A program made the translations under genes and the position numbers. This document shows positions 193 to 54,800 of a stretch of 64,000 bases of DNA, in pieces. How positions within the stretch are numbered: the first letter of the stretch is position 1; the number at the start of each line of letters is the position of its first letter. The DNA comes from Chiloscyllium plagiosum (lineage: Eukaryota): contig NC_057759.1 in NCBI RefSeq assembly GCF_004010195.1, forward strand, positions 2,845,269-2,909,268. Direction: 5' to 3'. The notes under the pieces were generated by a model, which had not been told where the DNA came from, searched no databases, and saw only the letters and a program-made list of their open reading frames with translations.

Positions 193-531
193 ATCAATTC
201 TCGAAACCAACAATCAAAATGCTGTCAGATTCCGGTGTCAATTCAAATAGAAAGGATGTCGTGATTTCCTGCAAAGGTGACATTCGGCCCAGAGGAGGAA
301 TATTCTTCTTGTACAACAGTTGGAGGGAAGGTTCTCGACAGGATCGTCAGGATCGTCAGGTGACTGGTCTTAAAGATACCGCAGTCTTTACTATAAATGT
401 CCATGAGCAATATTCTGCTGGAGACTAAAGTTATTGGTATCATACAAAGGTTAATGGACGTGGCGTGCTTTCCCCGTCCAGCCAATCTGTTCAAGTCACA
501 GAGAAAAGAAAGGAGGATCACGCATCAAAAG
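193..531 (+). pseudogene. Decayed Ig-domain exon of an LRC-type (LILR/OSCAR/IGSF1-like) receptor
   Basis: Acceptor cag|AT at 193 and phase-1 donor AAAG|gtaatt at 531. Translation: DQFSKPTIKMLSDSGV..KDVVISCKG..IFFLYNS..TAVFTINV..SAGD*SYWY..SPSSQSVQVTE. TAA at 426-428 replaces the Y of G-x-Y-x-C, the second Cys reads Tyr (TAT), and there is a 9-bp duplication (caggatcgt)x2. Confidence 0.75.
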
Positions 532-2835: not shown

Positions 2836-3165
2836 AACACGATAACACTACAATGGACTTTGATTCATCTCTGTCTCAGTCTCTTCGTGCCCATTGTGAT
2901 GGTGCTGAAAATGTGTTGCTGGAAAAGCGCAGCAGGTCAGGCAGCATCCAAGGAGCAGGAGAATCGATGTTTCGGGCATGAGCCCTTCTTCAGGAATCAT
3001 GCCCGAAACGTCGATTCTCCTGCTCCTTGGATGCTGCCTGACCTGCTGCGCTTTTCCAGCAACACATTTTCAGCTCTGACCTCTAGCATCTGCAGTCCTC
3101 ACTTTCTCCCATTGTGATGGTGGTCATCATTGTCGAACATTTTACAAACGGCTTGCCACTGACAG
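2836..3165 (+). pseudogene. Decayed transmembrane exon of an activating-type receptor, interrupted by a TE
   Basis: Acceptor ttctccttgcacag| and donor ACAG|gtaaaa. Removing the 2905-3122 insert and one frameshift base gives EHDNTT-WTLIHLCLSLFVPIVMVVIIVEHFTNGLPLT, resembling the DYT..NLIR..L.....E TM of LILRA/OSCAR-type receptors. Confidence 0.65.
2905..3107. mobile_element. Short hairpin (inverted-repeat) Penelope terminal fragment with 15-bp target duplication
   Basis: Arms ctgaaaatgtgttgctggaaaagcgcagcagg.../...cctgctgcgcttttccagcaacacattttcag. TSD cccattgtgatggtg at 2890-2904 and 3108-3122. The same sequence ends the Penelope element at 60490-60584. Confidence 0.85.
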
Positions 3166-3559
3166 GTAAAATGAGCATTATTGCTTGGTTTTGAAACTTT
3201 GATGTTCCCTTACGCTTGCTTCTTTTTTCTTCCTTCGCGTGTTACCCATTACATCAGAAGGCAGTTAGCTGGGTGGCTGCTTTGCTAACGTAGAGTGATG
3301 CCAACAACATGGTTGAATCCCAACATTGACCGAGGTTACCATGAAAGATTCTCCTTCCCAACCTTATCCCTCACCTGAGGCAAAATAATCCACAGATGAA
3401 AGTGCAATCCATGCTTCCCCTTCTCCCTCTCTCACTCTCCCTCTCCCTTCCTTTCTCTCCCCTCCCCCTCAGCACTTTTCTCTCTCTCTCTCTCTGTCCC
3501 TGCCTCCCTTTCCCTCACTCTCTCTCCTTTCCTCTCTGTGTCTCCCTCTCTCTGTCCAA

Positions 3560-4775: not shown

Positions 4776-6309
4776 GATCATTCTCTGCAGTTAAATGCAT
4801 AACGACACCCAGATCCTTCTGTACTGAAGCACTCTGAAGATTCTTTCTGTTTAGAGAATGTCACCGTTTCAATCTTCCAACCTCACATTTAACCACATCA
4901 AACTCTGCCTGCCAAATGTTGGCCAATTCACCATTCACACCCCTCCTCAAGTAAGGGAATCAAACTTGTATACCAGAGGAGCTCTAGTGTTTGTATGTCT
5001 GGTCAAGTTCAGGTTAAAGCTGAGGAAATCCCTGTGCTTTGGTTAATGGAATAAAATCGGCACTGGTAATGTCAAGGGGTAATGGTTACATTGTCACTAA
5101 TCAGAAATGGCCTTTTTATTTGTTTATTAAATAAGTAACTGATCCCATGCATGCTGAAGTTTGGAAGTAAATAAGGAGTACCCTTTAGTTGGCAACACAT
5201 GTCCTCACCTTCCAGCTGTTATGGGTGGCTCCAGTGGTCAATTATTTTCGACCAGGCTGCTCTCTTCATTAAACGTCCTACTTCCTATTTTACTCCTGAC
5301 TGTCCATTCACCCTTTCCCTCGCAGGCATATTCTTTTCTCTACAGGCCTCAAGGTAAAGGTAGGGATGACACTTTAGAACTGAGATGACGTGACATCGCG
5401 TCAGCCTGAAGGGGTGAGGATGAATCTGGGGAACTCATTGCTGCAGAGAACTGTGGAGACCAAGTCAATGAGCGTCTTGAAGACAGAGATGGGAACATTC
5501 CCGATTGATCAGGGGATTGAGATGAATGAGGAATAGGCAAGAGAAAGGTATCTCGACCTCAATCAGCTGTGATTGAATGGTAGAGCATAATCGATGCGCT
5601 GAATGTGTTAATTCCACTACGTCCTCATGTTTCCTTCCCCAAAATAAATGGCTGTATACTGAATTTGCATATTTCAGGCATGCTTATTTGTCTTTCATTT
5701 CAAGATCATCCCGTTCTTTGAACTAACTACTCTGTGTGCACAATTAGATGGGCGCATAACCTATGGTTAATTCAGAAGATACTTTCACAATATTTGCAGG
5801 ATGTCTACAAGCTAACATCTTAACATGCATTCCATGTTATTCTGGCAATACATAACTCCTTTGTTAACCCTCCACAGGGGAGAAAAAGGATCTGACAAAA
5901 CACACTGTTCGCCTCTCCACAACAGGGCTATGATGTTCGATGTGGGAATCCACTCGCTTGTTGTTTCCAATGTGCCTTCCGAAGGTGGGTTACAACGTGT
6001 GCTTCCTGTGCTCCCTGCCAATTATTCCACAACTTTGCTTTATCCAAAGCTGGTCCCCCTCTCTCCCCCGTACACATTCATGAGCCTGTGAAGCTTCTCG
6101 TCCAATCCTGGGGTGTCACGAGGCCCATCGGCCCATTGAATCTGTACTGCCGAATGCTATTATAAAGCTACAACAGTCCCACTGCTCATCACATTAGGAA
6201 TGGACAATCAGGAATGGATAAATGTTTTCTTTGCAAGAAAAAAGCAGTTCAACGATAACATTGGTTTTAGTTACACAGGATTCTAGTACCAGCTCGAGCG
6301 AAGAATTAC

Positions 6310-8170
6310 AAGAGAGAAAGTGAGGACTGACGATGCTCGACACAGGGTCGAAAAGCGTGGTGCTTGCAAAGCACAGAAGGTCAGGCAGCATCCCAGAGTC
6401 TACGTATCGAGCATAGGTCCGTCATCAGGAATGTGTGGGTGTGTCGTTACAGGAGAGAAGGGGACTGCAAAGTATAAAGAGGGATGGAGGCATGTGTAAG
6501 TTTTTGGGAAGGTAGATGCAGGTTGGAGATGATAGTAAAAGGTTGGATTGAAGAGTGGAGCAGATAACTGGGAAGGAAGAAAGATGGACATGAAGCACAC
6601 TTCAACGTGCAGAGTTAGAGGGTTGGATCTGCAATGAGGTGCAGGGAATGGAGATTAGGAAACTAGTGAAGTCAATTTTGATGCTGTGTGGTAGAAGGTT
6701 CCGAAGGCAGAAGCTGAAGTGTTTTTCCTCCAGTCGCTGGGTGGTTTGGATTTGTTGGTGGAGGAGGACCAGGACTTGAATGTCCTTGGTAGCGTGGGAA
6801 AGGGAGTTGAAGTGTTCGGCCACAGGGCGATGGGGTTGTTTGGTACATGAGTTCCAGAGATGTCCCCTGAAATATTACACGAGTTGGCATCAAGTGCAAT
6901 GGACGCAGTAGATGAGGTGCTTGGATGTGCAGGGAACCCTCTACCATATGTGATAAGATCCTTTGGAATCCTGGAAAAAGTTGAAGGAGGAGTTGGGATG
7001 TAGTTTATACACATCTTGCAGTCGCAGAGGAAGATGTCAAATGTTAAGAGTGCATTGGTGGGGACCGTGGACCTAACAAGGGAGTCATGGAGGAAATGGT
7101 GTCTGTGGATCAGAGGATGATATGGAAGGGGAGGTTGCTGTCCTTGAAATAGGAAGCTGTCTGGGATGTCCTGGAGTGGAATTGTTCCTCCTAGGAGCAG
7201 GTACGGCAGAGGCAGAGGAATTGGGAGTGAGGGATTGTGTTTTGACAGGGGTAGGGGATAGGAAGAGGAGTAGTCCAGGTAGCGGTGGGAGTCAGTGAGT
7301 TTGAAGTAGATGTCCATGTTGAGTCTGCTGCCGGAAATATAGACGCAGAGGTCTAGCAACGGAGAGCGATGTGCCTGGGATTGAGCAGAGGGTGGAAAGC
7401 ATTCGCAAAGTTGAAGAACTGTTCAATCTGCTCGTGGGAGCCCGAGGTGGCACCAAAACAGTCATCAATGTAGCAGAGGAAAAGGTGAAATGGTGCTAAT
7501 GTAACTGCGGAAGATGGACTGTTCGATGTATCCAACGAAGAGGCTGTCAGACCTGGTTTCCACGCGGGTGCCCACGGCTGCACCTTTAGTCTGAAGGAAA
7601 TGGGAGGACTCAAAGGAGAATTTGTTGAGAGTGAGGACCAGTTCCACCAATGAAATGAGAGTGTCAGTGGAAGGGCACTGGTTGGGTCGGTGTGAGAGGA
7701 TGGAAGGGAGAGCTTGGAGTTCTTCACCACCACGAATGGACAGATATTGGGACTGGAATCCCATGATGAAGATGAGTCATTGGATGACGGGGAAACGATA
7801 GCTTGGGTGCAGGGTGTGGGTGGTGTACCGAATGCAGGTGGAAGTTCCTGAACAAAGAGGTACAGGACGATATCAAGGTATGAGGACATACGTTCGGCGG
7901 GGTAGGAGCAGGTGGAGATGATGGATCGACCATTTCAATCATGTTTGTGAATTTTGGGTAAGAGATAAAACCTGGCGGTGCTGGGTTCCCGAACTATGCA
8001 GCTGGAGGCTGTGGATGTGAGATCCCCTGAGACTATGGATGGTCTGGGAGATGATGGTTTGGTAATGGGGCGGGGGGGGGGAGGTCATGGTGAAAGGCGC
8101 ATTAGGAGGAGGCATTCGTGAGTTGGCACACTAGGCATCAGCAGTGCAGAGGTCAGTGTGCCAAACTACC
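6310..8170 (-). mobile_element. Degraded Penelope-like retroelement (RT + GIY-YIG region)
   Basis: Frameshifted ORFs TDTLISLVELVLTLNKFSF..QTKGAAVGT, FLCYIDDCFG, DIYFKLTDSHRYLDYSS, VAEHFNS..RLEEKH. Terminal repeat at 6310-6430. Confidence 0.9.
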
Positions 8171-9220: not shown

Positions 9221-9645
9221 NNNNNNNNNNNNNNNNNNNNNNNNNNNNNNNNNNNNNNNNNNNNNNNNNNNNNNNNNNNNNNNNNNNNNNNNNNNNNNNN
9301 NNNNNNNNNNNNNNNNNNNNNNNNNNNNNNNNNNNNNNNNNNNNNNNNNNNNNNNNNNNNNNNNNNNNNNNNNNNNNNNNNNNNNNNNNNNNNNNNNNNN
9401 NNNNNNNNNNNNNNNNNNNNNNNNNNNNNNNNNNNNNNNNNNNNNNNNNNNNNNNNNNNNNNNNNNNNNNNNNNNNNNNNNNNNNNNNNNNNNNNNNNNN
9501 NNNNNNNNNNNNNNNNNNNNNNNNNNNNNNNNNNNNNNNNNNNNNNNNNNNNNNNNNNNNNNNNNNNNNNNNNNNNNNNNNNNNNNNNNNNNNNNNNNNN
9601 NNNNNNNNNNNNNNNNNNNNNNNNNNNNNNNNNNNNNNNNNNNNN
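9221..9645. other. Assembly gap (425 N)
   Basis: Run of N. Confidence 1.
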
Positions 9646-9962: not shown

Positions 9963-10270
9963 CACCAGGCTTCCAGTTGCCTGCCTTTTCAGCACCCCAC
10001 TGTTCCAAGACAGCCAAAAGTTCCATCTCGGGATCGTGCTGCTGGCTCAGCACAAGGTGGAAGCTCAGCACAAGCTGAAAAAACAGCGTCTCACTTTCTG
10101 CTTGCGGACCCTGCAGCACCAGGCTTCCAGTTGCCTGCCTTTTCAGCACCCCACTGTTCCAAGACAGCCAAAAGTTCCATCTCGGGATCGTGCTGCTGGC
10201 TCAGCACAAGGTGGAAGCTCAGCACAAGCTGAAAAAACAGCGTCTCACTTTCTGCTTGCAGACCCTGCAG
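9963..10270 (+). repeat. Tandem duplication, 2 x 154 bp, of a Penelope-derived segment
   Basis: Units start caccaggcttccag at 9963 and 10117; one mismatch noticed. Confidence 0.9.
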
Positions 10271-10497
10271 CTGTCCAGACTCAATGTCAAGTTCAAAAAT
10301 GTTAAGTCCTGAGCACTTCCTCCATGTGTCCTTATTCCAGTCCCCACACCTCATGGTCAGAAGAATTGTCACTGGACCCAAATCATTAACTCTGCTTTCT
10401 GTCCAAAAATGTAGCCTGACCTGTTGTGTTTCTCCACCAATTTTTGATTTTGTTGCGGATTCAGAGCATCTTTGTCTTTTTTTCTAATTTTAAAACT

Positions 10498-11658
10498 AAA
10501 ATCAATCCATCTGTCTGGCTGTCCAAGGCAGTGACTGAGCAAAAAACAAACATGAGATTCCAAATGAGATGAGAAGCAGAGAGAAAGACCGATAATTGGA
10601 GATAGAGACAGGGAGAGACAGAAAGGAGCAGATCCAGTTTAAACGAAATGCACATGAGGAATAAAGAAATCATACCCACTCTTCCACAACTCTTGATGAA
10701 CTTTCACAATCCCGCTACCCACTGGGGGCACGGCCCTGTGCTGGCTGCTTCCCCGTGACGGATTGTGTGTGAATACCTGTGGCTCTGTGTGTGTTTCTGT
10801 GTGCGTGTGCGTGCGCGCGAGCCTGACGGGAATGCAAAAGTATTGGAACTGAGATTGATCATGTTCACACACACACAGCAGGCACAATATTTCTTACTGA
10901 AAACAACCAATGATGGAAATCACAGCAGGTCAGACACTATCCACGGAGACTTGGCAAGCTAAAGCTTTGACTGCAGATGACACCTCATCAGAGCTGGAGA
11001 TGTGTGGAGGCACTGGGTATAGAGTGCTGGTGCAGAAAAGATGTTTGTAGTTCAGATTAAGTGATTCAAAAATCAATCCATCTGTCTGGCTGTCCAAGGC
11101 AGTGACTGAGCAAAAAACAAACATGAGATTCCAAATGAGATGAGAAGCAGAGAGAAAGACCGATCATTGGAGATAGAGACAGGGAGAGACAGAAAGGAGC
11201 AGATCCAGTTTAAGCGAAATGTTCATGAGGAATAAAGAAATCATACCCACTCTTCCACAACTCTTGATGAACTCTCACAATCCCGCTACCCACTGGGGGC
11301 ACGGCCCTGTGCTGGCTGCTTCCCCGTGACTGATTGTGTGTGAATGCCTGTGGCTCTGTGTGTGTGTTTCTGCGTGCATGTGTCTGTGTGTGTATGTGTG
11401 CGTGAGCCTGACGGGAATGCAAAAGTATTGGAACTGAGATTGATCATGTTCACAGACACACAGTAGGCACAATATTTCTTACTGAAAAAAACCAATGATG
11501 GAAATCACAGCAGGTCAGACACTACCCACGGAGACTTGGCAAGCTAATGCTTTGACTGTAGATGACACCTCATCAGAGCTGGAGATGTGGAGGGCTGTGG
11601 AGGCACTGGGTATAGAGTGCTGGTGGAGAAAAGATGTTTGTAGTTCAGATTAAGTGAT
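10498..11658 (+). repeat. Tandem duplication with ~571-bp period
   Basis: atcaatccatctgtctggctgtcc at 10501 and 11072. The copies differ by substitutions and in (TG)n tract length. Confidence 0.9.
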
Positions 11659-11859
11659 TGAAATGTGAGAATGGCATAACAATGGTATGTCAAAGAGTGT
11701 GTTGCTGGAAAAGCACAGCAAGTCAGGCAGCATCGGAGGAGCGGGAAAGCCGATATTTTGAACATAAGCTCTTCATCAAGAATGGTATGTCTCATGTGAC
11801 GGTATGTCCTTGGCATTTTTCTTTTCACAGAAATTATAAAAGCAGCAGTTCCGGAAAAG

Positions 11860-15879: not shown

Positions 15880-18270
15880 TTGCCTCCACAACTGCTGTTT
15901 GCAACACATTCCATGCTCTCACAACTCTCTGTGTAAAGAACCCGCCTCTGACATCCCCTCTATACTTTCCTCCAACCAGCTTAAAACTATGACCCCTCAT
16001 GTTAGTCATTTCTGCCCTGGGAAATAGTCTCTGGTTATCAACTCTATCTATGCCTCTCATTATCTTGTCTACCTCAATTAGGTCCTCTCTTCTCCTTTTC
16101 TCCAATGAAAAAGTCCGAGCTCAGTCAACCTCTCCTCATAAGATAAGCCCTCCAGTCCAGGCAGCATCCTGGTAAACCTCCTCTGAACCCTCTCCAAATC
16201 AACCACATCTTTCTTATAATAGGGCGACCAGAACTGGACGCAGTATTCCAAGTGCGATCTAACCAAAGTTTTATAGAGCTGCAACAAGATCTCATGACTC
16301 TTAAACTCAATAACCGTGTTAATGAAAGCCAAAACACCATATGCTTTCTTAACAACCCTATCAACTTGGGTGGCCATTTTAAGGGATCTATGTACCTGCA
16401 CACCAAGATCCCTCTGTTCCTCCACACTGCCAAGAATCCTATCCTTAATCCTGTACTCACCTTTCAAATTCGACCTTCCAAAATGCATCACCTCGCATTT
16501 ATCCAGGTTGAACACCATCTGCCACCTCTCAGCCCATCTCTGCATCCTGTCAATGTCCCGCTGCAGCCTACAACAGCCCTCTATACTGTCAACGACACCT
16601 CCAACCTTTGTGTCATCTGCAAACATGCTGACCCATCCTTCAATCCCCTCATCCAAGTCATTAATAAAAATTACAAACTATAGAGGGCCAAGGACAGAGC
16701 CTGTGGAACACCACTCACCACAGACTTCCAGGCAGAATATTTTCCTTCTACTACCACTCGCTGTCTTCTGTTGGCCAGTCAATTCTGAATCCAGACAGCT
16801 ATGTTCCCCTGAATCCCATTCCTCCTGACCTTCTGAATGAACCTACCATGGGTTACCTTATCAAATGCCTTGCTGAAGTCCATATACACCACATCCAGAG
16901 CTCGACCTTCATCAATCTTTCTAGTCGCATCCTCAAAGAACTCGATAAGGTTTGTGAAGCATGACCTGCCCCTCCCAAAGCCATGTTGACTGCATTTAAT
17001 CAAGCCATGCTCTTCCAGATGGTCATAAATCCTATCCCTCAGAAACCTTTCTAACACATTGCAGACGACAGACGTGAGACTTACTGGTCTGTAATTGTCG
17101 GGAATTTCCCTATTTCCTTTCTTGAAGAGAGGAATTACATTTGCCTCTCTCCAGTCCTCAGGTACGACTCCAGTGGAGAACGAGGATGAAAAGATCTTCG
17201 CAAGTGGCGAAGCAATTGCATTTCTCGTTTCCCAAAGCAGCCGAGGACAAATCTGGTCTGGGCCTGGCGACTTGTCAATCTTAATGTTTGACAAAATTTT
17301 CAGCACATCAGCTTCCTCTATCTCTATCCATTTCAGCATGCACACCTGCTCCTCAAACGTTTCATTCACTACAAAGTTCGTTTCTTTCGTAAAGACAAAA
17401 GCAAAAAACTCATTTAGGGCCTACCTCCTCAGACTCCACACACAAATTCCCTATGCTATCCCTGATCGGCCCTACTCTTTCTTTGACCATTCTCTTATTC
17501 CTCACATAAGTGTAAAATGCCTTTGTGTTCTCCCTAATCCGTTCTGCCAAGCCTTTCTCGTGTCCTATCCTGGCTCTCCTCAGACCATTTTTAAGCTCCC
17601 TCCTCGCCTGCCTGTAATCCTGTAGAGATGGAAATGTGTTGCTGGAAAAGCGCAGCAACACATTTCCATCTCTGATCTCCAGCATCTGCAGACCTCACTT
17701 TCTCCTCAAAGATGTAATCCTCTAAAGCTGAGCTTGACCCGAGCTTCCTCCACCTTATGTAAGCTACCTTCTTCCTTTTGTCGAGAAGCTCCACCGCTCT
17801 CGTCATCCAAGGTTCCTTTATCTTACCCCTTCTTGCCTGTCTCAGAGGGACATATTTATTCATCACTTGCAACAACTGTTCCTTAAACAGTCTCCACATA
17901 TCTATAGTGCCTTTACCATGGAACAATTGCTCCCAATTCATGCTTCCTAACTCATGTCTAATCGCATCATAGTTTCCTCTTCCCCAATTAAATATCCTCC
18001 CATTTTGCCTAATCCTCTCCTTCTCCAAAGCTGTGTAGAATGTGAGGCAGTTGTGGTCACTATCACCAAAATGCTCTCCCACCACAAGATCTGATACCTG
18101 TCCCGGCTCGTTTCCGAGCACTAAGTCTCGAATGCCCTCTCCCCTCGTCGGCCTGTCAACGTATTGAGTTAGGAAACCCTCCTGAACACACCTTACAAAA
18201 ACAGCTCCATTCAAATCTTCTGCTCAAAGGAGGTTCCAATCAATATTGGCAAAGTTAAAGTCACCCATTA
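15880..18270 (-). mobile_element. CR1/HER1-type LINE, long ORF2 (RT) segment with few frameshifts
   Basis: ORFs FLTQYVDRPTRG..GDSDH, KSPGPD..NYRPVSLTS..SQHGF..DVVYMDFSKAFDKV, SMFADDTK..RSHLEYCVQFWSP. Confidence 0.95.
17622..17712. mobile_element. 91-bp Penelope hairpin nested in CR1, 9-bp TSD
   Basis: Inverted repeat agagatggaaatgtgttgctg/cagcaacacatttccatctct. TSD tgtaatcct at 17613-17621 and 17713-17721. Confidence 0.85.
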
Positions 18271-26215: not shown

Positions 26216-28246
26216 CGGATCTCATCGCCTATGATGCTCCATTTAGTCTCCCAGAGTTCAATAAAGGCTGCTTTTTCCCACAATAAAGACAAAAAGGATC
26301 TATCATCTCGTTGTGCTTTTAAGTGTTCAATACAGAGGTTGCACAAGGCTGTGTGCCCAAGCCTGAGTTGCCCACACTGTAGATGGTGTATTACTGCAGA
26401 CAGGGCTCTGCAAAATGTTCAGATATATATATATGCCTTTGATTGTGTGAATGGGTGTGCATAGGGCTGTGTGACTCTGTGTGTGTGCCTGTGTCCGTGT
26501 GTGTGGTTGTCGAGGTGCATACTTGTGTATCTGTGTGACCCGTGTGCTACTTTGCGTGAAAGAGGGAGTGTGTATGCCTGTGTTTGGGAACTGGATGTGT
26601 GTGTGTGTGTGGGTCTGTGTCTCTGTGTATGTGTATGTGCATGACTGGCTGTATTATTCTACATGTGTTACTGTGCATGTGTGACTTCACGTGTGATGGT
26701 GTGTGCCATGCCCTTGCCCTTCTAGATAGAAGTCGTTGTGAAATTGAAAGGTCCTGTCTGATGATCGTTGGTGAATTTCTGCAGTGCATCCCGTAGATAG
26801 TACTTACTGCTATGAGAATCAGTGCAGAAGGGAGTGTATGCTTGTCGATGTTGTGCTAATCTAAATGTCCTGAAAGGTGTCAAGCTGCTTGAGTGTTGTT
26901 TCAGCTGCTCCAATCCAATCAGGCTTTGGGGATCAAGATGTGCATTTCTCACTGCAGTATTCTTAGCCTCTGGCCTGCTTTTGATGTCATTGTTATTATG
27001 TCATGAATCCAGTTCAGTTTCAAGTTAATGACAACCCCTAGAATGTTGATGGTGGGGATTCAGTGAAGTTAACATCGTTGAATGTCGTGTAGGACCGGGG
27101 AGGTTGGCCTGGTGCTGGCAGTTCGATTATCTCTTATTGGTCATTGTCATAGTCTAGTATTTGTCAGTTGCGAATGGTACTTGGTACTTGTCTGCCCAAG
27201 TCTGGATATTGTGCAGATCCTGTTGCATTTGCACATGAACTGCTTCAGTATCTGAGAAGGTATAAATACTGCTGAACATTGTGCAAACACCAGCGAACAT
27301 CCCCACTTCTGACCCTACAATTGATGCAAGGTCATTGATCATGCACTGGAGATGATTTGGCTGAGGACACTATTAAAGATATGGGAGAAATATTCCAGGT
27401 GGAGTATGCTATTAAACTGACAAGGGCGCCAGAGGTTGAAGAGGATGGGGGGGTTTGTGAGACTGAAGCTGTGACAGTCGTTGTGATTCGTGCAGAAGAA
27501 ATTCACAGAGACAGATTCCTACACATTCTGCAGTGCCGAGTTCTCAGTATGGAGGTCAAACTATGCGTGTATGTATTCACTGTGTTCAACAAATACAGAT
27601 AAAAGTGATAAAAGTTTTTATCCATGTGTAATTGTGATTTTTCTTTTGTTTTTTATCATTATGAAAGTGCCCAGTAGAGTGAGATAAAAGAGGAACTAGT
27701 GGGGGTCTTCAACTTTCCAAATATTGATTGGGATAACTATAGATAAAGCACTTTACATCAGTCAGTTTTTGTCCAATATATGCATGACGGTTTCCTAACC
27801 GGGTATGTTGACAGGTCAACAAGGTCACATTAGGGAAAGTATTGTGGAATGAACATGGCCAAGGTTAGATTTTTAAGTAGGTGATCACTTGGTTATAGTG
27901 ACAACAGTTCGGTTCTGTTTACATCAGCGATGGAAAGGGATAGGTATATACCAGAGGCAAGAGTTATAGATGAGGGAAAGGCAAGTACGATGCAATTAGC
28001 CAAGATTTTAGATGCATATGATGGGGACGAAAACTGCAAGCGATGGGTCCAATTGAAATGTGGAGCTTATTTCAGGAACAGCTACTGCAGGTCCTTAATA
28101 ATTATGTACCGGACAGGCAGGGAGGAAGCTTTTGAGCGCAGGAGCCATGATTTACAAAGGATGTTGAATCTCTTGTCAAGAGGAGGAAGGCAGTTTACGT
28201 TAGGATAAGATGTGAAGGCTCGATTAGGGAAATTCAGAGTTACATG

Positions 28247-28840
28247 GAATGTTGTAGACGACGTTGGTTTTGTCCATGGGATGTATTGTGTCTTTTAAGT
28301 TTGTTAGGTTTTGTTTGAGAGTGTTGGTGGGTTTGTGTGCTACTAGGATTCCGGGGGTCTTAGTAGTCTGGCTGTCATGCAAATTTCCATGCAAGGACTG
28401 CCAGAAACACTATGTAGGACAAACAGGAAGAAAGTTAGCTACCAGAGTGCGCGAACACCAGCTAGCCACAAAAAGGCACGACCATCTCTTCCTCGTAGCC
28501 CAACACACGGAGGAAAAAAAACACCGTTTCGACTGGGACAACACATCTATCCTGGGACAGGCTAAGCATGGCAGAGAATTCCTAGAGGCCTGGCACTCCA
28601 ACCACAACGCCATAAACAAACACATAGATCTAGATACCATCTATCAATCCCTCAGAAAACGATCAGGAAATGACATCACCACAAACCCGAGGAATCCCAT
28701 CCAGGACAAACATATAAATAGAAAGCAGGAGACAACAGTTTCGCTTCACTTGGAGGTTGCGACTGATGATGTTACCTAGCCAGGTAATGAAACGTCTGGA
28801 TATCAAACCTACAGCTCAGTGAGCAAACCTACACCCTAAG
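28247..28840 (+). mobile_element. Penelope 3' fragment (GIY-YIG endonuclease), apparently with an inverted 5' segment
   Basis: KFPCKDCQKHYVGQTGRKLATRVREH..REFLEAWHS; hammerhead core at the 3' end. Confidence 0.9.
28760..28800 (+). ncRNA. Minimal hammerhead ribozyme core
   Basis: CTGATGA (28763-28769), tgttacc-tagcca-ggtaat stem II, GAAACGTC. Confidence 0.65.
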
Positions 28841-42800: not shown

Positions 42801-45800
42801 CTTTTTGACAGGGCAAAACCATTAAATGGTGCCTTGTACAGATCATAACTAGTTGTGATAACCGTTATGATAAATATAAATGGATATTAACTTCAGTTCT
42901 ACTCTCCAGTTCCATAATAGGTGATCAGACGTGCGGAAGCGTAGCAAAAAAGGAGGAGAGTGAGGGAGGACGACAGAGGGAAATACGGACAGACTATAAT
43001 GGGCAGGTGCATGTAACATGAAATGTAATTCACTCGTGGAACATGGGCATCACTGGTTGGGCCTAGCATTTGTTGACCCAATCCCTAGTTGCTCTCTCTC
43101 AGAGGGTGGGAAGTGAGCTGCCTTCTTGAACTATTACGTCCAAGTGCTGTAGGAATACTCACAGTGCCCTTGGGGAGAGGATTCCAGGATTCTGAACCAG
43201 CGACACTGAAGTTGAGATCCAAGTTGGGATGCTGAGGAGATCGTGAAGGTGGCGGTGTTCCCATGTATTTGCTGCGCTTATCCTCCTAGATGGAAGTAGT
43301 AGTGAGTTTTGAAGGTGCTAGCTGAGGATCTCTGGTGAATTTCTGCTGTGCATCTTGTAGATGGTACACACTACTGCTACTGAACATCGATATTTGAGGA
43401 AGTGAATGTTTGGGGATGTGGTGCCAATCAAGTTGGGGCTACATTGTGGCTGGATGGTTTTGTGTTGTTTTTGGAGCTGCACTCATTCGGCCAAGTGGAG
43501 ACCATTCAATCACACTCCTGACTTGGGCCTAATCGATAGTGGGCAGGCCTTGGTGAAGTCAGGAGGTAAGTTAGTTTCTGCTTCTCGCTCCCTCTTCAGC
43601 TTTTAGAAGGCCCTTACTTAACGTATAAACCCACAAGTGGATTTGTAAAAGGAGACATTTTAAAATTGCAATGTAGGACAGAGAAAAAAGACAAGATGTT
43701 TATTGGTACAAAAATGAACAGTTTTTCACTTATAGATAGGCAAATATTTATGAAGTACTCACGAACAATAAAACTGGTGGATCTTATCACTGGGTGATAT
43801 ACAACTCATGACAAAAGAGTGAAACTGCTGAAGTTGTCGTCACGGATGAGTGACGTTTAACTTTCTTTTATATCGAAACTTTGCATGGAAGTGCAATGCA
43901 CAGCGTTCAAAGAATAGTAGTGTACAGGGACAGACCTTTCAGCCCAGCAAGGTTCTGCTAAAACATGATGCCTATCTAAACTGAAACCGTTTTGCCTCTA
44001 GGCTGTTGATGTCGCTCTACTTCTTGCCTGGTCATTTATCTGTCAAATGCCTCTTAAAAATTGTTATTGTATTTGCTTCCACCACACCACATCTGGCAGT
44101 GAATTCCAGATACTTACCACCTTCTCTGGAAAAAAGATGCCTTGCTCCTTGTATCTTCTTAAAATCTCTTTTTTTCTTAAACTTCTGTCCCTGAATTAGA
44201 ATTACAATTAGAATCCTTAGAGTGTGGAAGCAGGCCCTTCAGCCCAACAAGTCCACACCAATCCTCCGAAGAGTAGCCCACTCAGACTCATTCCCCTATA
44301 TTTATCCAGACTAATGCACCCAACTTAAACATCCCTGAACACTATGGGCAATTTAGCATGGCCAATTCACATGAGCTGCACAGTTTTGGATTGTGGGAGG
44401 AAATCGGAGCACCCAGAGGAAACCCAGACAGACACGGGGAGAGTGTGCAAATTCTACATAACAGTCACCCGACTAGCTCTGCGAGGCAGCAGTGCTAACC
44501 ACTGAGCTGCCATACCACCCAAAATATCTTTTTAAATTGACATTCATACTCGGGAAGAAAATGGTTCTAACTATCCTTTCTATCCACACAGCTCATAATT
44601 TTATACACTTCAATCAGATCATTTTTTTTTCCTGACATACAAGCAAAAACAAACTGAATTTGCACAATGCCTCCTGTTAGTTAATACCGTCCGAACAAGG
44701 CACTATCTTGGTAACCCAGTTCAATACCCTCTCCAAATCCTTCACATCATTCTGATAGTGTGGCGACCAAAACTGTACCGTTTTCTTGACCTCCAAACTA
44801 ATTGTCAACAAAATACGCATGTGTCAACATGATTTAATGCTGAACATTAATTTTATTCAGTCAGTCATTTATGTAAGGTTTGGAACCTCATCTTGGAGTT
44901 AGTAATTTCTGACGAGGCGAGGTTAAATAGGTTGGGCTTGTACTCATTGGGGTTTAGTAGAATGAGAGGCCATCTTTTTGAAGATTATTAGAACTACTTG
45001 ACAGTGGAGATTTGGTGAGAGGTTGTTTACTCTTGTGTGGGTGAGTCATGGACCAGAGGGCCATCATCTCGGAATAAAGCCTGGGGATGGGCGGGAGTTT
45101 GGAGGGGGTGGGGGGTGGGGGGGCGGTGGGGGAGGAGGTGTTTGGAATCGCCCATTGAATATAGAGGTGAGGAGGGATTTCCTCTCTCCAGGGGGAGTGA
45201 GTCTTTAGCATTCTTTATTTCCGAGGGCTGTCAAGGCTGGGTCATTTTGTATATTTGAAGCGAAAATAGAGAGATTTTTAATCAGGGAGGGGAATCGAGT
45301 TTTATGGGACAAAAAGGCAGGAAACTGGAGTTGACAATGATCAGATCAGCCGTTATCTCATTGAGTAGAGGAGCTGATTCAATGGGTGAATTTTGTTCAT
45401 ACATCTTATGATCTTCATGTCTAATCATATTGAAGATGGAGGGGAATTTATAGTCAAACGGCATACTCCTGTTTCTGTTTATCGTGGTCTTATGATCTCT
45501 CCTCTAGTCAGGGATCAAAACTGTATTTAACACTCCAGGGAAATTGAAAACAAACTGATAGTAGTTGTCCTGAGTGAATTGTATAAAATATTGGGGATTG
45601 GCTTGCTGATACTTGAAAATATACTCAGGCAACAAATTATTAGTGATCGTGAATGCTTGAGGAGCACTTTCGAATGTAAGAAATGCTCATGATGAGCTTT
45701 ATGATGCACTTTTACTTTTGATTTAGATAGAAATGTGGAGCTCCATGTTGACCCAGTTTCACTTTTGGAAGGAGAGAGACTAAAATTGAATTGTCGGTAC

Positions 45801-48800
45801 AAATACTATATTTGGAGGAGCAAGGATTCTGTCTTTTATAAAAATGGCAAGAAGATCCATGCAGTGTGGTTCCCAGGACGTGAATCATCGTATAGCACTA
45901 AAGTAAACAGCACCAATGACAGTGGATGGTACAGTTGTAAAATTGGTGGGTCGGAATCGCGAAATGTTAGTGTTCAGGTTCGAGGTACGTCCTTGATGTT
46001 ACAATCTGTGGTAGACAATGTGCATATTTCTCTCAATTGCTAATTTAAAGACAGGAGACATTCTGAATTAGCCAGTATAGAAGCGGCCCTTTGGTTCATC
46101 ATGTCTGTGCTGCCAATGGTACACCAAACCTACTTTCCCGCAATGTCTTGAAAATTATGACCGTTCAAGTGCTGGTCGATTTACTTTTTAAAGGTTGCAT
46201 GTTTTCCTGTCTCAATTGCCTTTCGAGGCAGTGCATTCCAGATCCTCAATACCCTCTGGGTGAAACATTCCTCAAATCCCCCTTAAACCTCCTGCCTTTC
46301 ACTTGAAACTGATGCCTTTCTTGTTGCTGATGCTTCAACTAATGGGAACAGCTGCTTCGTACCCACCTTGTCCATAATCCTGCACAACTCTGTCAGGTCC
46401 CCCCTCAGCTTTGTCTGTTCCAGAGAAAATAACCCAAGCTCATTGGTTCTTCATGCAACATTACCCACCACGCCCACCCGCCTTTGAGAGAAGCCATTCC
46501 ACCTCATCTCTGCTTTGAATATATCCCCAGACCCTTCTCCTGAAGCAGCGACGTCTTGTTCCAGATTGTCCCATACGACGAAACATGCTGTGCCCATCTC
46601 TTTTGTTAATCCTCCCTTTAACATCGTAAGAGTAAAGTCACCACAGTCCCACTCTTCCATCCGTGAGAGAGGGGACTGGGTGGTGGTCTAATCTGAGGGG
46701 TACAACGCCGCAGTTGAGGGAAGAGATGGAGATGTAGAATCCTCCGTGGTCACCTCAGCTGGTGTTGGAATTGAATCCATACCATGGACACCATCTGCAA
46801 CTCAGACCAGCCATCCAGCCGACTGAGCTCGACACCAAGCAAATATCATACTCTGAGCTCTGAACTTGCTCAATCTCTCCTCATAAGGCAACATCGTATC
46901 TCTGGTATAATCTGGGAAAGTTTTAATATGTTGACATAATTCATGTCAATGGTCTGAATATATCGTTGCCAAATAGAGTCATGGAATCATGCAACACGGA
47001 AACAGGCCTTTCTGCCGAACTCATCCCTGCCAATCAGGTTTCCTAAGCTGAATGAGTCCCAATTGCATTGGACCAAATTCCTCTAAAGATTTTCCGCCAT
47101 ATGCCTGTCCAATTCATTTTGTTAAATATTGTAATTGTATCCTAGTCTACCACTTTCTGTGGCAGCTCTTTCCATACACACCGCACCCTCTGTATCAAAA
47201 CATTGCCGTTCATTTCCCTTTTAAATCATTCCCCTCGCACATTAAATCCTAACCCCTCCATGTTTCAGACTCACCGATGCTATGGAAAAGACAATGGCTA
47301 TTCATCATATCTATGCATTTCATGATTTTATAAACTTGGATAAGGTCATCCCGAATCTCTGACACTTCAGTGAAAGAAGTCCCAGCCTCACCTTTGGGTC
47401 TCAGTTTCATTCTTGTATATTTTGTTTCTGATACCTTTCCAGTTTAATAACATCTTCCTAATAATAAGGCGACCAGAATTGCACACACAACTTCAAAGGT
47501 GACCTCAAATACATCCTGTACATTCGGAACATGATGTCCCAACTCATGTACTCAATGGCCTGAGCAATGCAGGCAAGCTTGCCTAAAGCGGTCTTTGCCA
47601 CTGTCTATCAAGGAATTATGCACCGCCAACACTCAGTCTCTCTGCTCAACAAGAATACCCAGGGTCCTACCATTCACTGTATATGTCCTGCTCTTGTTTG
47701 TTTCATGAACAGGCATTTTAACCTGGCAGTTAACCAAATTACACTCCATATGGCTGTTGGGCCAATTGATCAAGATTACGTTATTGTCTAAGTTTATGTT
47801 CCTCACGGTCTACAGCCATTCCATCCTTTTTTTTTCAAAAGGCAACCCACTCTTCCTGGGTCTGAACCAGTCAATGGATTGGACTTCCACCATGTTTGTG
47901 GAAGACATGGAAATAGTTCAGAAGGCAATTGATGAGTATGACACAAAGTGGCTGCAATGGGATACAGATGAGTTATAAGGAAATGAGCATAAACCTGGCA
48001 GATGCATGATAATGGGGGGAAATGTGTGATTTTGCGATTTGGCAGGAAGAACAGAGGAGCTCATGGAACATGAACCGGGGTGGTGGGAGGGGGGATGTTT
48101 GCTAAGACTTTACAATACGCAAATCAGACAAGAGGGGAATACTGTGAATATTCTGGAGCCCTGCATCTGAAGGAATGTAGACTGGGCATTGGAGACTGTA
48201 CAGAGGAAGTTCATACAGCTAATCCCTCTTATGGAGGGACTATTTGTTAATGGAAAGGCGGAGTGGTTTGGGCCTGTCCTCAGTGGAGTCTGGAAGAATG
48301 AGAGATTTATTGAAGATTCTTAGAGTGAGTTGACAGGAGTTGACAGAGAGACATGGTTTCCCGCTGAGTGGGAGAGTCTGGGAACTGAGGGGCATTGTCT
48401 CAGATTAATAGGAGGCGGGGTTGGTGACCTCCCATTGAAGTCGGAGATGAGATGGAACTTCTTCTCTCTGAAGGGAGTAAATCTGTGGAATTCTTTTGAG
48501 CAGAGGGCTTTCCTGGATGGGTTGTTGAGTATATTCAAGACTGAGAGGCAGAGATTTTAAATCAGGGCGATGACGTGGAACAAAAAGCAAGAAAGTGGAC
48601 TTGAGGATGATCGCATCAGGCATGATCTCATTGAATGATGGAGCAGACTCAATGAGTTGAATGCTCTTCTTTTGTTCCAACATCTTATCCTTTCGCTTTG
48701 TGATCAGAACAGTAGATTAACGAGTCCCAATTGTGTGTTACATTCCAGAACGCTTTGCCAAGCCCTTGCTGAGGGTGGAACCGGCGCCTGAAGTATTCGA

Positions 48801-51800
48801 GGGCCTCCCGGTCACGCTGACGTGCACTGTCCGGGAGGCAAGGACCTCCGTCCACTTTCACTACTCATTTTACAGAGACAGCGCCGGCCTAGAGGCCGTG
48901 CCTGGTCATGACTTCATGTACACTATCAACGCAGCGACTGTAAACGTTTCTGGGAATTATGCCTGTGAAGCAATCGAGACGGTTCACAGTCTGAGGAAGA
49001 GGAGTGACAGCATTTACATTTCCATTAAACGTAACTATGTGTCATTATCCCCAGCGCAAATTAAAGGCCCTTCGACCCATCGAGTCAGAAACAGCCACCT
49101 CACTATTATCTAATCCCTATTTTCCCAGCACGTGGTACCAGAGCCTTGGCCTCATGAGTGCACATCCAAACACTCTTCAATGTGTTGGGGGTTTCTGCCT
49201 CTCCTACCCTAACAGGCAGTAAGTTCCAGATACTCTGAGTGAACATGCGTTCCCTCTCATTCCTTCTAAACCATCTGTCCCTGACCTTCAATCGATGTCC
49301 CCTCCCTCCACCAATTGGGAAAAGTTTCCTCCTATATACCCTATCTACACCCCTCATCATTTTATACATCTCCATCACGACCTCCACCCGGACTCAATTT
49401 CCTCTGCGCTAAGGAAAACAATCCCAGTCTATCCAGTCTCTCTCCATCCTGAAGCTCTACAGCTCCAAGGCAACATCCTGGTAAATCACCTTCTGCACTC
49501 TCTCCCAGTGCTATCCTGTCCCTCCTAGAATGTGGATTCCAGAACCGGGTAAAATACTCTCGCCGCGGTTGTATTTATTTATTCCAAATGCGATCACGAT
49601 CATCCCCAAATCTGACCTCGAGTTAGCACGATGCTGACATTCTTGATTGACATTGAAGGATTGTTAGGAATCCCCCGCACAGGTCCCGCCTCGCGATTTT
49701 CTTGCTCTTGTGCTGACCACAGAGCTTACTCAAGTCCAAACATTCTACAGGCTCAAACAGAAACATGTCCTTCTGCTTTTCAGAGGCGTTCGCTGTCCCT
49801 ATATTGATCATGCATCCTGAGGAACAGCTGTTTGATGGCCAAAGGGTTAAACTGGTGTGCTGGGTTGAAGCGAACCCCTCCCAAGCTTCCTTGCGGTTCA
49901 GCTTTTACAGAAATGGGCTCCTTCTCCAGTCTCCATCTGACCTCAGTGATTACATCTCTGAGTCAGCTCGTCCGGCAGACTCGGGGACTTACCATTGTGA
50001 AGTCACAGACGGGAAGCTGTGGAAACGCAGTAATCAGCTTTATTTATCCATCAGGCGTAAGTATCATTTATCATTGTCCGTTTCTTAACTGTTACAGAAC
50101 TCAGAAAAAAGACAATTTATCATCACTCCCCACATCTCACAGACATATATTGGAGATCTAGAGACAAAGAGCACAGGGTGTTGGGTGGACCGTTTAGGAC
50201 TGCGATGGGGAGAAATGTTTCAAACAGAGAGTGAGGAGGCTGTGGAATTCACTGCCCGGAAAATTATGGAAACATGTAGATGGCACTAGGCCATCCGATC
50301 CTTCCAGTTTGTTGTGTCCATTCACTAGAATTGTGGCTGACCTTCCAACTCAGTCCCCTGTCCACTTGCTCTCTTCCTTTATGCCCTAAGAATTCTATTA
50401 ACCTCCTTGAATAACATTCACTGTCTCCGTTCCGACTATTTTCTGTGTCACAGAATTTCACAGGCTCCTAACTATCTTGGTGAAGGCATTCGTCCCCATC
50501 TCAGTCCTATTCCATCTCCTTTAGACTGTAACCCCTCGATGTCTCTCAACATTCTTCTTGTGCTGGCCGTGTCTAATTAGTAAATTTGCAGATATCATGA
50601 AATTCGGTGGTGCTGTGGACAGTAAGGAGGATTGTCAAAGAATATCGATCAGCCTGAAAGTTGGGCACAGAAATCGTGGATGGATTTTAATCCAGGCTAA
50701 TGTGAGCTGATGCATTTTTGGGAGGTGAAATGCGAGAGTAAAATATACAATAAATGACAGGACCCTTGGGAGCATTGCTATACAGAGGGATCTTGGGGTG
50801 CAAGTCCATAGTTCCCTGAAAGTGGCAACACAAATGGATAACATGGTAAAGAAGCCATATGGCATGCTTCCTGTCACCAGTCGGTGAAATATGTATAAAC
50901 GTTGGTAAGTGATATTGCAGCCGTGTAAGACTTCATTTCTACCACATTTGGAGGATATGTGCAGCTTTGTTGCCCACACTATAGCAAAGATGTGGAGGCA
51001 TTCGAGAGGATGCAAAACAGTTTTCCCTGGATGTTGCCTGCATTGGAGTTTGTAAGCCATGAGGAGAGGTTGGCCAAACTTGGATTGTTTTCACGAAGGC
51101 ATTGGAGGCTGGAGGCGGACCTGATTGGGGTATACAGAATTATGAGAGGCATGGACAGGAAGGATAGCCAGTGTCTTGCTTCCAGGTTGGAAATGTCAAA
51201 TACTAGGGTGGGGAGCACAGGTGTAAGGTGAGAGGAGGAGAGTTAAAATGAGATATGAGAGGAAAGGTTAACTTAGAGTACAACAGGATCTTGATTAGAT
51301 GGGACAACGGGCTGAGGAGTGGCAGATGGAGTGTAACTTAGATTAATGTGAGGTGCTGCACTTTAGAAAAGCAAATCAAGGCAGAATCTGTGCACCTAAT
51401 GTCCTGGGGAGTGTTGCTGAACAAAGTGACCTTGGAGTGCTGATTCACATTTCCTTTAAAGTGAAGTTGCAGGTAGATAAGATAGTGAAGAAGGTGGTTA
51501 GATTGCTTTCTGTTATTGTTTGGAGAATTGAGTACCTGCGTTGGGAGGTCATGTCATGGCTGTTCAGCACATAAGTTAGGCAACTTCTGGAATAATGTGT
51601 GCAAATCTGGTTTCCCTTCAAAAGCAAGGATATTCGGAAACTTGAAAGGGTTTAGGAAAAAGATATTGCAAGTGTTGGAGGATTTGAGCTTTCGGGAAAG
51701 ACTGATTAGGCTGGGATTGTTTTCCATGGAGCATTGGAGGCTGAGAGGTGACCTTATAGAGGTTTATAAAATAATGAGGCTCATAGATAGGGTAAATCGG

Positions 51801-54800
51801 CAAAGTCTTTGGGTGGGTGGGTCCAAAACTGGAGGGCATTGGTTTAGGTGAGAGTGGACTAATTTAAAAGGGACCTAAGGAGTAACGGTTTTCAACAAAG
51901 GATGGTGCGTCAATGGAATGAGCTTCCAAAGGAAGTGATGGAGGCTGGTAAGATTACAACATTTAAAACGCATCTGTTTGGGTGTATGAATTGGAAGGGT
52001 TTAGAGATATAAGGGTCAACTGCTGGCAAATGGGACTAGATTAATTTATGATGTCTTGTCAGCACAGACGAGTTGGACTGAAGGTGCACTACATCTCTGT
52101 GGTTCTATGATTCTAAACAGTGAGTGTTAGGTGCCTGGCACGCACTGCCAGAACAGTTGGTAGAAACAAATACGATAGCAATGTTTACGAAGCATAAAGA
52201 CAGACACTTGAATATGTAGGGTGTAGACGGATACGGAGAGCATGCAGACAGATGGAATTCGGATAGAATGACATCACAGTCAGTGGTCTGAAGGGCCGGT
52301 CCCTGTGCTGTACTGTTCTATGTCCTAAGAATTCAGAGAATCGGCTCATATTCTGGGCTCAAATCCCACCATAGCAGATGGGAGAATCTGAGTTCAATTC
52401 CAAATGTTGATTGCAGCCCGACAACTGTCAACTGCCCTCTGTGTAATTAGGGATGAGTAATAAATACTGGACTACCCAGGGACACCCACATCCAACCAAT
52501 GAACAAAATAAATGTGTATGATTGTGATGATCTTCATAGTTGAGTTTGCAATTAACTCCGCCAAATACAATGATCTATCTTTTGTCTATGATTCCAGGAA
52601 TTCCAGTGTCAAAACCGGAACTAACAATTCATCCTGGAAAGTATCTAATCGAAGGAGACACAGGATCCTTAATCTGTTCGGTCTCCAATGGTTCTCTGCC
52701 GATTTATTACCAATTCTACAACAGCTCAAACGTGGAACTGTACAGGGAGCTTTCCAACAGCACTGAGCTTGTTTACAACATTGGAGCTATCAATAGAAGG
52801 GACGAAGGGCTTTACCATTGCTCAGTGAGAAATGAGGTGACAGGCCCTCAGCACAGTGAAGACATAGAGATCACAGTGATAGGTGAGTTCACAAGGACTC
52901 TCTCCCAAAGAGTAACTGAACCATCAGTTCAGGGAATACTGCTGCTGAGACCAACTCAAAGCTGGTGCTTCGTCGTTGAACATCGCACCTTAGGCTAAAG
53001 CAACTGAGAGAGAGAGGGAGCTGCAGATCAGAGTCAAAAGGTATGGTGCAGGAAAAGCACAGCTGGTTATGCAGCATTAGTGCAAGAGGGAAGTCGACGT
53101 TTCGGGCATAAGCTTTTCCTCAGGAATGTGATGAAGCGCTAATGCTCGAAACATCAACAATGCTTTTCCAACATCACAGTTTTCGAAACAAAAGCGGCAC
53201 AGCCCAATGTCCCTGTAGTTGGTCCAATATCCTTCTTAACCACTCCTATCCATGCACTTGGCCAAGCGACTTTTAAATGATGTTGATGTCCCCTCTCCAA
53301 CCATTTCCACGGCAGCTCATTCCATATGCGTTACATCCAATGTGTAAAAGAGTTGTCCTTCAGGTTTCCCTTTTAATCTTTTCCATCGAACCTTAAACTA
53401 TTGTCCTCTAGTCCTCGACTCCACAACGCTGGGAAACAGACTGAGTGCATTCACCCTAATTTTGCCTCTCATAATCTGATACACTTCAAAGTTTGTGAGA
53501 AGATTTGTAGCTCGGGTGCTCGTTGTTGTGGTTCTGTTCGCCGAGCTGGAAGTTTTTGTTGCAAACGTTTCGTCCCCTGGCTAGGCGACATCATCAGTGC
53601 TTGGGAGCCTCCTGCGAAGCGCTTCATTGATGTTTCCTCCGGAGAATGCACACTCAGGAACAATGGACTGACAGAAGAGACACAACAAACAGTGAGACAA
53701 ACTGTCGTACCTATGATAATAAGGAAAAGACAAACACATAACCTCAACACCAAGGAGAGGGAAGCACTGAAATCACTAAGAAACGATAAGGATGGTGGGG
53801 AGCTGGTTATTCATTCATTCCAGAGAGATGATGTCGGGAGGTATCACTGTGCAGCAATCAACAATGGAACCAACACTATTTTTAATGTGACCAGCGACTA
53901 CATCGAATTCACACTGCGAGGTAACAGTGGCACTCAGATTGAACATAGACAGACCATAGAGAAAGACCATTCACTCCATCCGGTCTGTGCCAATCAGAAA
54001 CTCTTAACCATCTCAGGGGAGGTGATAACTGGGTGGTATTGATCCAATAGGCTATTGGTCCAAATTGGTGGTGTCTGGTGTTCCTGATATCCCGCCCATA
54101 CCAGATGGTGGAATTTGAATGCGATAGAAAATCTGGAATTGGAAGCCCCATGGAGAGGGCAGCATACAGAGGAGATTTACCAGTATGTTCCTTGGATTTT
54201 AGCGATGAAGAGAGGGAGGCTGGATAATCTTGTAATATTTTCTATGGAAGAGTAAATGCTGAGAGGGGAACCCAATAGAGATGTGTAAGATTGTGAGGGT
54301 AAGGGACTAGGCAAAGAGGAAACAGGTGTTCTCCATATTCAAAGGGTCAGTAACTAGGGCTGGGGTGGAGAGGTCATTTTAAAGTGAAGGATGGGAGGAT
54401 TAAAGGGAGATTTGAGGATTATTTCACCGAAAGGTTGGTGGGAGTTGGAATATACTGCCTGGCAAGGAAACTTCCAACATTTACAAATTACTTGGATCGG
54501 CACTTGAAATGTCATAATATTGAAGGCTGTGTGTGTGTGTGTGTGTGTGTGTGTGGGGTGGGGGTGGGGTTAGTGTGGGAAAGTGGGATGGGTGTAGGCT
54601 GTTCAATGGGGCAATTTCTGCCACACTGCGAGACTCTCGATACCTCCATGGAGGCATGGAGTTACATATCTGTGGGTATTGATCAGTTTGATGTTAACTG
54701 TGTACATCACACAGAGATGATGTGAGAAAACTTCCTGGTGAATTTGTTAACGTGAGCTGAATATTCTTGTTGGATTCCAGCTCGGAGTTATTCCAAGGAA

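Follow-up and report, generated by a model that had tools for sequence, protein, structure and literature searches.

A hydrophobic exon of the shark Chiloscyllium plagiosum, split by the end of a retroelement, raises the question of what kind of receptor it once anchored in the membrane, and of whether the histidine that it carries, where activating receptors of the LRC have arginine, was inherited or arose by decay. The exon lies in a stretch of 64,000 nucleotides of contig NC_057759.1 (the window), and all coordinates below are positions in that stretch. A preliminary description, made from the letters of the window, had proposed that a Penelope hairpin with a perfect target-site duplication (TSD) interrupts the transmembrane (TM) exon of a dead activating receptor coupled to FcR-gamma. 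Published work is cited by PMC number.

Structure of the pseudogene

The interrupted TM exon extends from 2836 to 3165, with an AG acceptor before 2836 and a GT donor after 3165, and follows a 339-nt Ig exon that ends in phase 1 (Table 1). Excision of the insert leaves an exon of 112 nt, and because this follows a phase-1 exon end, one of these bases is extra, at about 2855-2856. A phase-0 reading of the excised exon, with no frameshift, was rejected, since the Ig exon ends in phase 1 and the homologues align free of gaps only in that phase. The tryptophan in the peptide that was originally read from the exon is an artefact of the frame switch; in the ungapped register of the homologues this residue is methionine, and the extra base comes after it.

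Predicted proteins of whale shark, zebra shark, epaulette and bamboo shark, and one close protein, match the Ig exon with 55-63% identity. The exon contains a stop codon (426-428), a change of the second cysteine to tyrosine (432-434) and a 9-nt tandem duplication (near 341-358). The gene is therefore dead, as had been supposed, and for reasons beyond the insert; the extra base in the TM exon is a further lesion. The locus is an unprocessed pseudogene, and the family to which it belongs consists of paired shark receptors with two Ig domains. In the intron between the two exons (2600-2800), two further samples with the same organism label differ by about 5% together with an 8-bp deletion, reflecting either high allelic diversity or a close paralogue.

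Two short tail exons had been suggested at 5346-5359 and 5800-5823, and neither resembles the tails of the homologues (scores of -8.7 to -23.3). The real tail exon lies at 5878-5933, where the sequence is identical at 10 of 18 residues to each of three homologues (P0004, P0052 and P0158); among 5934 positions scanned this is the best, with a score of 52.7 against 13.3 for the next. A search of positions 500-45000 for a remnant of an uncharged TM exon or an ITIM-bearing tail gave no match, the best independent hit having an E value of 2.8 and the bit scores being negative. Nor is there an intact paralogue within the window at E 0.01, apart from weak matches to an FCRL-like gene described below.

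Table 1. Features of the pseudogene and of its insert, in window coordinates
Feature	Position	Strand	Basis
Membrane-proximal C2-type Ig exon, phase 1 to phase 1	193..531	+	55-63% identity to relatives
TM exon, 5' part	2836..2904	+	Homologue alignment in ungapped register
Left TSD copy, 15 bp	2890..2904	+	Exact repeat
Inverted 5'-truncated Penelope-like 3' end	2905..2997	-	92/95 identical to end of GIY-YIG element, 60492-60586
Forward 5'-truncated copy of the same Penelope-like 3' end	2999..3074	+	75/76 identical to 60510-60585
Element tail, ~35 bp	3075..3109	+	Matches copy at 17653-17705; element end 3109
Right TSD copy	3108..3122	+	Exact repeat
TM exon, 3' part, with Glu 17 residues past the His column; GT donor at 3166	3123..3165	+	Homologue alignment
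Exon of the cytoplasmic tail (18 residues, then TGA; no Tyr)	5878..5933	+	Homologue match (tblastn)

The Penelope-like insertion

The two copies of the target-site repeat (2890-2904 and 3108-3122) are identical over 15 bp and spaced by 218 bp, and of the seven exact 15-mer repeats within 400 bp found in the whole window this is the one that lies on both ends of the element. At each junction one or two bases could equally be element sequence; the right-hand element end falls at 3109 in thousands of copies (loose ends, in sample contigs). With an exact repeat, AG and GT borders and an exon that is rejoined on excision, the splitting of a hydrophobic exon by an insert with a perfect 15-bp duplication stands as first described. 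A proline at 2890-2892, where four carpet-shark homologues have leucine, lies within the helix and inside the duplicated target site; it may predate the insertion, a point that microhomology at the junction blurs.

The 218-bp insert consists of an inverted and a forward copy of the 3' end of a Penelope-type element followed by a tail of about 35 bp, so arranged that they form hairpin arms (2904-2986 and 2992-3074) with 3 mismatches in 83 positions. A parent-like element in the same window encodes a GIY-YIG domain (PF01541, 23.4 bits against a cut-off of 22.6), which lies immediately upstream of its insert-matching end. In Penelope-like elements with a GIY-YIG endonuclease the same layout is described, an inverted 5'-truncated copy beside a forward copy with a tail of 30-40 bp (PMC8557442); compared with complete elements of this kind, the insert has non-coding 3' ends only. 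Contig depth in sequencing samples is of the order of 10^6 over the insert and about 15 in its flank, and across 2843-2869, which includes the histidine codon, it is 0-11. The Penelope label given earlier thus holds, on the end matches (Table 1), the GIY-YIG domain, the layout and this depth. The retroelement is a very common one, and both the insert and the pseudogene are ordinary.

The parent-like element is fairly long (59239-60586, plus strand); it contains an RT-like frame and a GIY-YIG frame, and its 3' end holds, by eye, a motif like a hammerhead core. Its frame at 59239-60447 is RT-like by eye and matched no Pfam family in a Pfam search. Judged by eye against the hammerhead consensus, a core-like motif lies in the insert at about 2963-2991 on the minus strand; the hammerhead family is absent among the 15 Rfam matches obtained up to E 10, all of them under the gathering score. 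The hairpin was also considered as a microRNA or a member of another RNA family and rejected, its Rfam matches being far under their gathering scores. Further Penelope-like copies occur in the window at about 6300-8100 (minus strand), 11700, 17650, 28000-28800 and 53040.

In a second organism, two contigs begin in the element, with 23 and 19 bases of it, and continue into the exon; overall they show 11 and 13 differences. An empty site in that organism would cost 19 and 17 mismatches in those element bases alone; since the contigs differ too little for this, they suggest that the insertion is common to both organisms, with overlaps (23 and 19 bases) that fall below the 31-base bridging rule. 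A 592-nt contig found in two samples aligns at about 83% from inside the right TSD copy onward (3110-3273), its upstream 344 nt being unaligned, and at position 3156 three to six contigs per run differ from the window. These observations suggest that there are several paralogous TM exons, some of them lacking the insert.

A paired-receptor family in sharks

The predicted proteins related to the pseudogene end in one of two ways, with an uncharged TM segment and a long tail with V-x-Y-x-x-L motifs (as in P0003, P0005-P0007 and others) or with a second type of TM segment and a short tail. Three pairs of proteins with opposite TM and tail types have ectodomains that are 86, 81 and 79% identical, and the family accordingly shows the alike ectodomains, with short or ITIM-bearing tails, by which paired receptors are recognised; the window tail has 18 residues and no tyrosine. 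In a tree of Ig domains the window falls in a group of nine rows with support of 86/97, which is under the starred threshold, and the short-tailed members of that group, P0001 and P0004, both have histidine at the column discussed below.

Among proteins of solved structure, the family profile comes closest to PIR-B (1e-28), FCRL5 (3e-23), KIR3DL1 (1e-15) and LILRB, with OSCAR also matched; P0004 alone as query gave no match. Three of the 12 family proteins scanned pass the HIDE1 Ig cut-off, and the language-model look-alikes of P0052 fall in HIDE1, LILRA6 and allergin-1 clusters; the names of family proteins in public databases are automatic (OSCAR-like or IGSF1-like, for example). The receptor of the pseudogene would have worked like a paired receptor of the LRC/FCRL type. 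We do not file it as LRC proper, a placement that would call for a domain tree and for synteny with LRC flanking genes such as TTYH1, LENG8 and RPS9, nor do we file it as an NxxR receptor, because two of the defining residues differ (see below). No description of this shark family was found in the literature searched; subscription papers and some supplements may cover it.

Two of the gene models have peculiar ends. P0004 (Stegostoma LOC132207175, isoform X2) has an uncharged TM segment and a histidine-type TM segment in tandem; either the gene offers a choice of two TM exons or the model is an artefact of annotation. P0001 (Rhincodon LOC109923294) has no tail and ends in a frame that matches the shifted frame of the window at 3130-3162, probably through an indel of its own at the end of the TM segment.

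Families with a comparable design are known in other lineages. The Xenopus XFL (FCRL-like), XILR and SLAM-like receptors are paired, with a TM1 of the NxxR type and an uncharged TM2 (PMC2413239), and share the two-type pairing with the shark family, which differs in having no NxxR and in having members that pass the HIDE1 Ig cut-off. As the NxxR TM occurs alike in the LRC, FCRL and SLAM families of Xenopus (PMC2413239 and PMC4536121), it cannot decide family membership. The chicken CHIR-A/AB and catfish LITR families are also expanded and paired, with a TM residue that may be histidine or lysine, or may be dispensable, according to the papers cited below; they belong to other lineages and have other domain sets.

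The transmembrane helix and its predicted signalling

An NxxR TM is defined by the arginine with which the segment starts, an asparagine three residues before it, the consensus DYT ahead of the helix and an acidic residue that closes the segment (PMC6557307). In the window the arginine column has histidine (CAT, 2866-2868) and the asparagine column threonine (2857-2859), and D-N-T stands where the consensus has DYT, with aspartate at 2841-2843 and asparagine in the tyrosine column at 2844-2846; the acidic residue is present as glutamate. The NxxR-TM receptors of the LRC (LILRA, NCR1/NKp46, GPVI, FcalphaR, OSCAR and TARM1) share with the window gene an aspartate ahead of the helix, an acidic end, a short tail and C2-type Ig domains; the window gene differs from them at the three positions just named, in its shark lineage and in being a pseudogene.

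Eleven family TM segments of the NxxR type were chosen by eye from 159 proteins (all automatic gene models; isoform P0115 was left out), and in these the arginine column holds histidine in five (Rhincodon P0001, Stegostoma P0004 and P0158, Chiloscyllium punctatum P0052 and Scyliorhinus P0042), arginine in four (Pristiophorus P0035, Carcharodon P0080, P0018 and P0064) and glutamine in two (Heterodontus P0009 and P0016). Asparagine at -3 occurs in one of the eleven (P0004) and the full NxxR in none; the tyrosine column has tyrosine in four, with D-H-T in P0001, P0004 and P0158, and nine end in glutamate or aspartate. The window exon is identical to P0004, P0052 and P0158 at 22-25 of 37 positions, ungapped, and shares its threonine with P0001, P0052 and P0018 and the asparagine in its tyrosine column with P0052.

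The preliminary description had read the asparagine, threonine and histidine as decayed tyrosine, asparagine and arginine, and had looked to homologues for the arginine. That residue is absent from the closest homologues, the outcome by which that description was to be refuted, and present in four of the eleven segments, which are more distant or come from other sources. Because all four homologues from named carpet sharks (P0001, P0004, P0158 and P0052) have histidine, this residue was inherited and did not arise after the death of the gene, and the decay reading of the three residues falls with it. Arginine is probably the older state of the column and, judging from the alignment, probably changed to histidine once or more, long before the window copy died. 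Histidine and glutamine are each one G-to-A change from CGN codons, and the ancient change may have taken a CpG route.

We consider it reasonably probable, from sequence comparison, that the history of the gene ran as follows. The gene was of the short-tailed type, with its Ig exon joined to a TM exon homologous to the tetrapod NxxR type and to a tail exon of 18 residues with no tyrosine. In the carpet-shark branch the homologues show histidine for the signature arginine and a varying asparagine column, a state that would predate the death of the gene. In the live protein the helix would most likely have packed against an ITAM adaptor like FcR-gamma or CD3-zeta, making use of the polar histidine and of the conserved aspartate and glutamate at its two ends. 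Death came later by several lesions, one of them a Penelope-like retrotransposon end with its 15-bp duplication.

Signalling as an activating receptor, by way of an adaptor of the FcR-gamma/zeta type, is predicted as likely, with much the same confidence. An activating member of a paired family fits because the tail is short and free of tyrosine and the sister genes bear ITIMs, and with the NxxR-class TM these features keep the earlier proposal of an activating receptor alive; the canonical arginine on which that proposal also drew is missing. Receptors with other residues at this position have been described, for in chicken CHIRs histidine is among the TM residues taken as activating (PMC10764270), and catfish IpLITR 2.6b keeps its adaptor binding after a lysine-to-alanine change (PMC4810170).

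The main alternative, which we think unlikely though deserving of attention, is that the histidine-type TM descends from an activating one but had become uncoupled, so that the gene belonged to a non-signalling, decoy or decaying branch and was not activating when it died. In mammals, association with FcR-gamma is said to require the arginine (PMC6557307), and sharks are stated to have no common gamma chain (PMC4016189 and PMC5742104); the repeated loss of arginine to histidine or glutamine would fit relaxed constraint, and P0001 also looks broken at its TM end. However, all five carpet-shark and catshark homologues retain the histidine even though they agree with the window at no more than 12-25 of 37 exon positions, the acidic residue that closes the helix persists, as does a conserved short tail, and the catfish example is a precedent in fish for coupling independent of charge. 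On the adaptor itself, receptor terms are absent from the main text and one supplement of the elephant-shark genome paper, whose other supplements may bear on FcR-gamma; FcR-gamma-like genes have reportedly been found in a study of the catshark T-cell-receptor complex.

Homology of the TM to the NxxR class was examined with an NxxR profile built from the 10 of 127 TM segments that have a literal NxxR (one of them, P0130, a false hit); its N and R columns were hidden, and the other 117 segments and the window were scored. The window TM ranks 14th of 118, with a score of 19.1 (median 7.3, SD 8.0), and has aspartate at -8 and glutamate at +17 relative to the arginine column. Of the eleven family TMs of the same type, eight rank 3-15 and two of the arginine type rank 20 and 32, while that of P0042 is not among the best 40 of 118; ten listed uncharged TMs of the family rank 16-112. 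Given this rank and the exact register, the window TM is likely to be homologous to the NxxR-type class, by a modest margin in score, and the exon is a real TM exon of that class, as had been claimed.

That the shark TM is instead a generic hydrophobic helix that arrived at the same features by convergence seems very improbable: short hydrophobic segments do align readily, the masked-profile margin is modest and none of the eleven family TMs has the full motif, but the aspartate at -8, the arginine or histidine at 0 and the acidic residue at +17 stand in exact register, uncharged TMs of the same family score lower and the ectodomains are LRC/FCRL-like. Least credible of all is a canonical DYT..NxxR with arginine that turned into N, T and H by point decay (CGT to CAT) after death, which could point to the single base that separates each residue from its canonical counterpart (joint chance about 2%, 12/59 x 14/59 x 27/55), to the arginine in four of eleven family TMs and to a CpG-type arginine-to-tryptophan change in the Ig exon (435-437), but which is opposed by the histidine of four out of four carpet-shark homologues in three genera, by the threonine shared with three homologues, by the lack of a full NxxR in any family TM and by shared ancestry, which explains the one-base distances.

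Implications for the origin of activating receptors

Taken alone, the locus is one dead copy in an immune family that evolves by birth and death; its point of interest is a shark variant, with histidine or glutamine, of an ancient activating TM. PMC6557307 and PMC4536121 assign the NxxR-type TM to mammals, birds and amphibians, and PMC4016189 and PMC5742104 state that sharks lack FcRL, one of the two adding LRC-type receptors. The comparisons made here suggest that sharks and mammals would share one kind of 'activating' membrane anchor, with histidine for arginine in carpet sharks. Both TM types occur in a single shark family, some sharks have members of it with the arginine, and the window that contains the pseudogene also contains an FCRL-like gene.

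A wider reading, which we offer tentatively and regard as somewhat doubtful in its entirety, is that a hitherto undescribed family of paired Ig receptors exists in cartilaginous fishes and that its activating members have an NxxR-type TM, with histidine in carpet sharks and catsharks and glutamine in horn sharks. This would date the TM, and by implication its partnership with ITAM adaptors, to the ancestor of jawed vertebrates, and the Stegostoma gene LOC132207175 (P0004) might switch between inhibitory and activating forms by splicing. Natural variants of one helix with arginine, histidine or glutamine offer a direct test of what the arginine contributes, a matter that PMC6557307 leaves open.

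Other features of the window

Besides the pseudogene, a single gene was recognised in the window, a multi-Ig FCRL-like gene (43600-54885, plus strand) about 40 kb downstream, with exons near 45731, 48750, 49785 and 52599. Two of its domains were tested and match FCRL5 and FcgammaRI best, and the Ig domain of the pseudogene has no match to it at E 10. Its presence conflicts with the statement in PMC4016189 that sharks have no FcRL. It has an uncharged TM-like exon at about 54783-54881, and its first and last Ig-like exons look, by eye, broken or interrupted.

Near an assembly gap at 9221-9645 there are two tandem duplications, at 9963-10271 (two copies of 154 bp, 99%) and 10498-11663 (two copies of about 570 bp, 93%), which could be assembly artefacts. 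At 55481-55830 there is a degenerate array of a six-base, CTAACC-like repeat that contains a 95-bp duplication.
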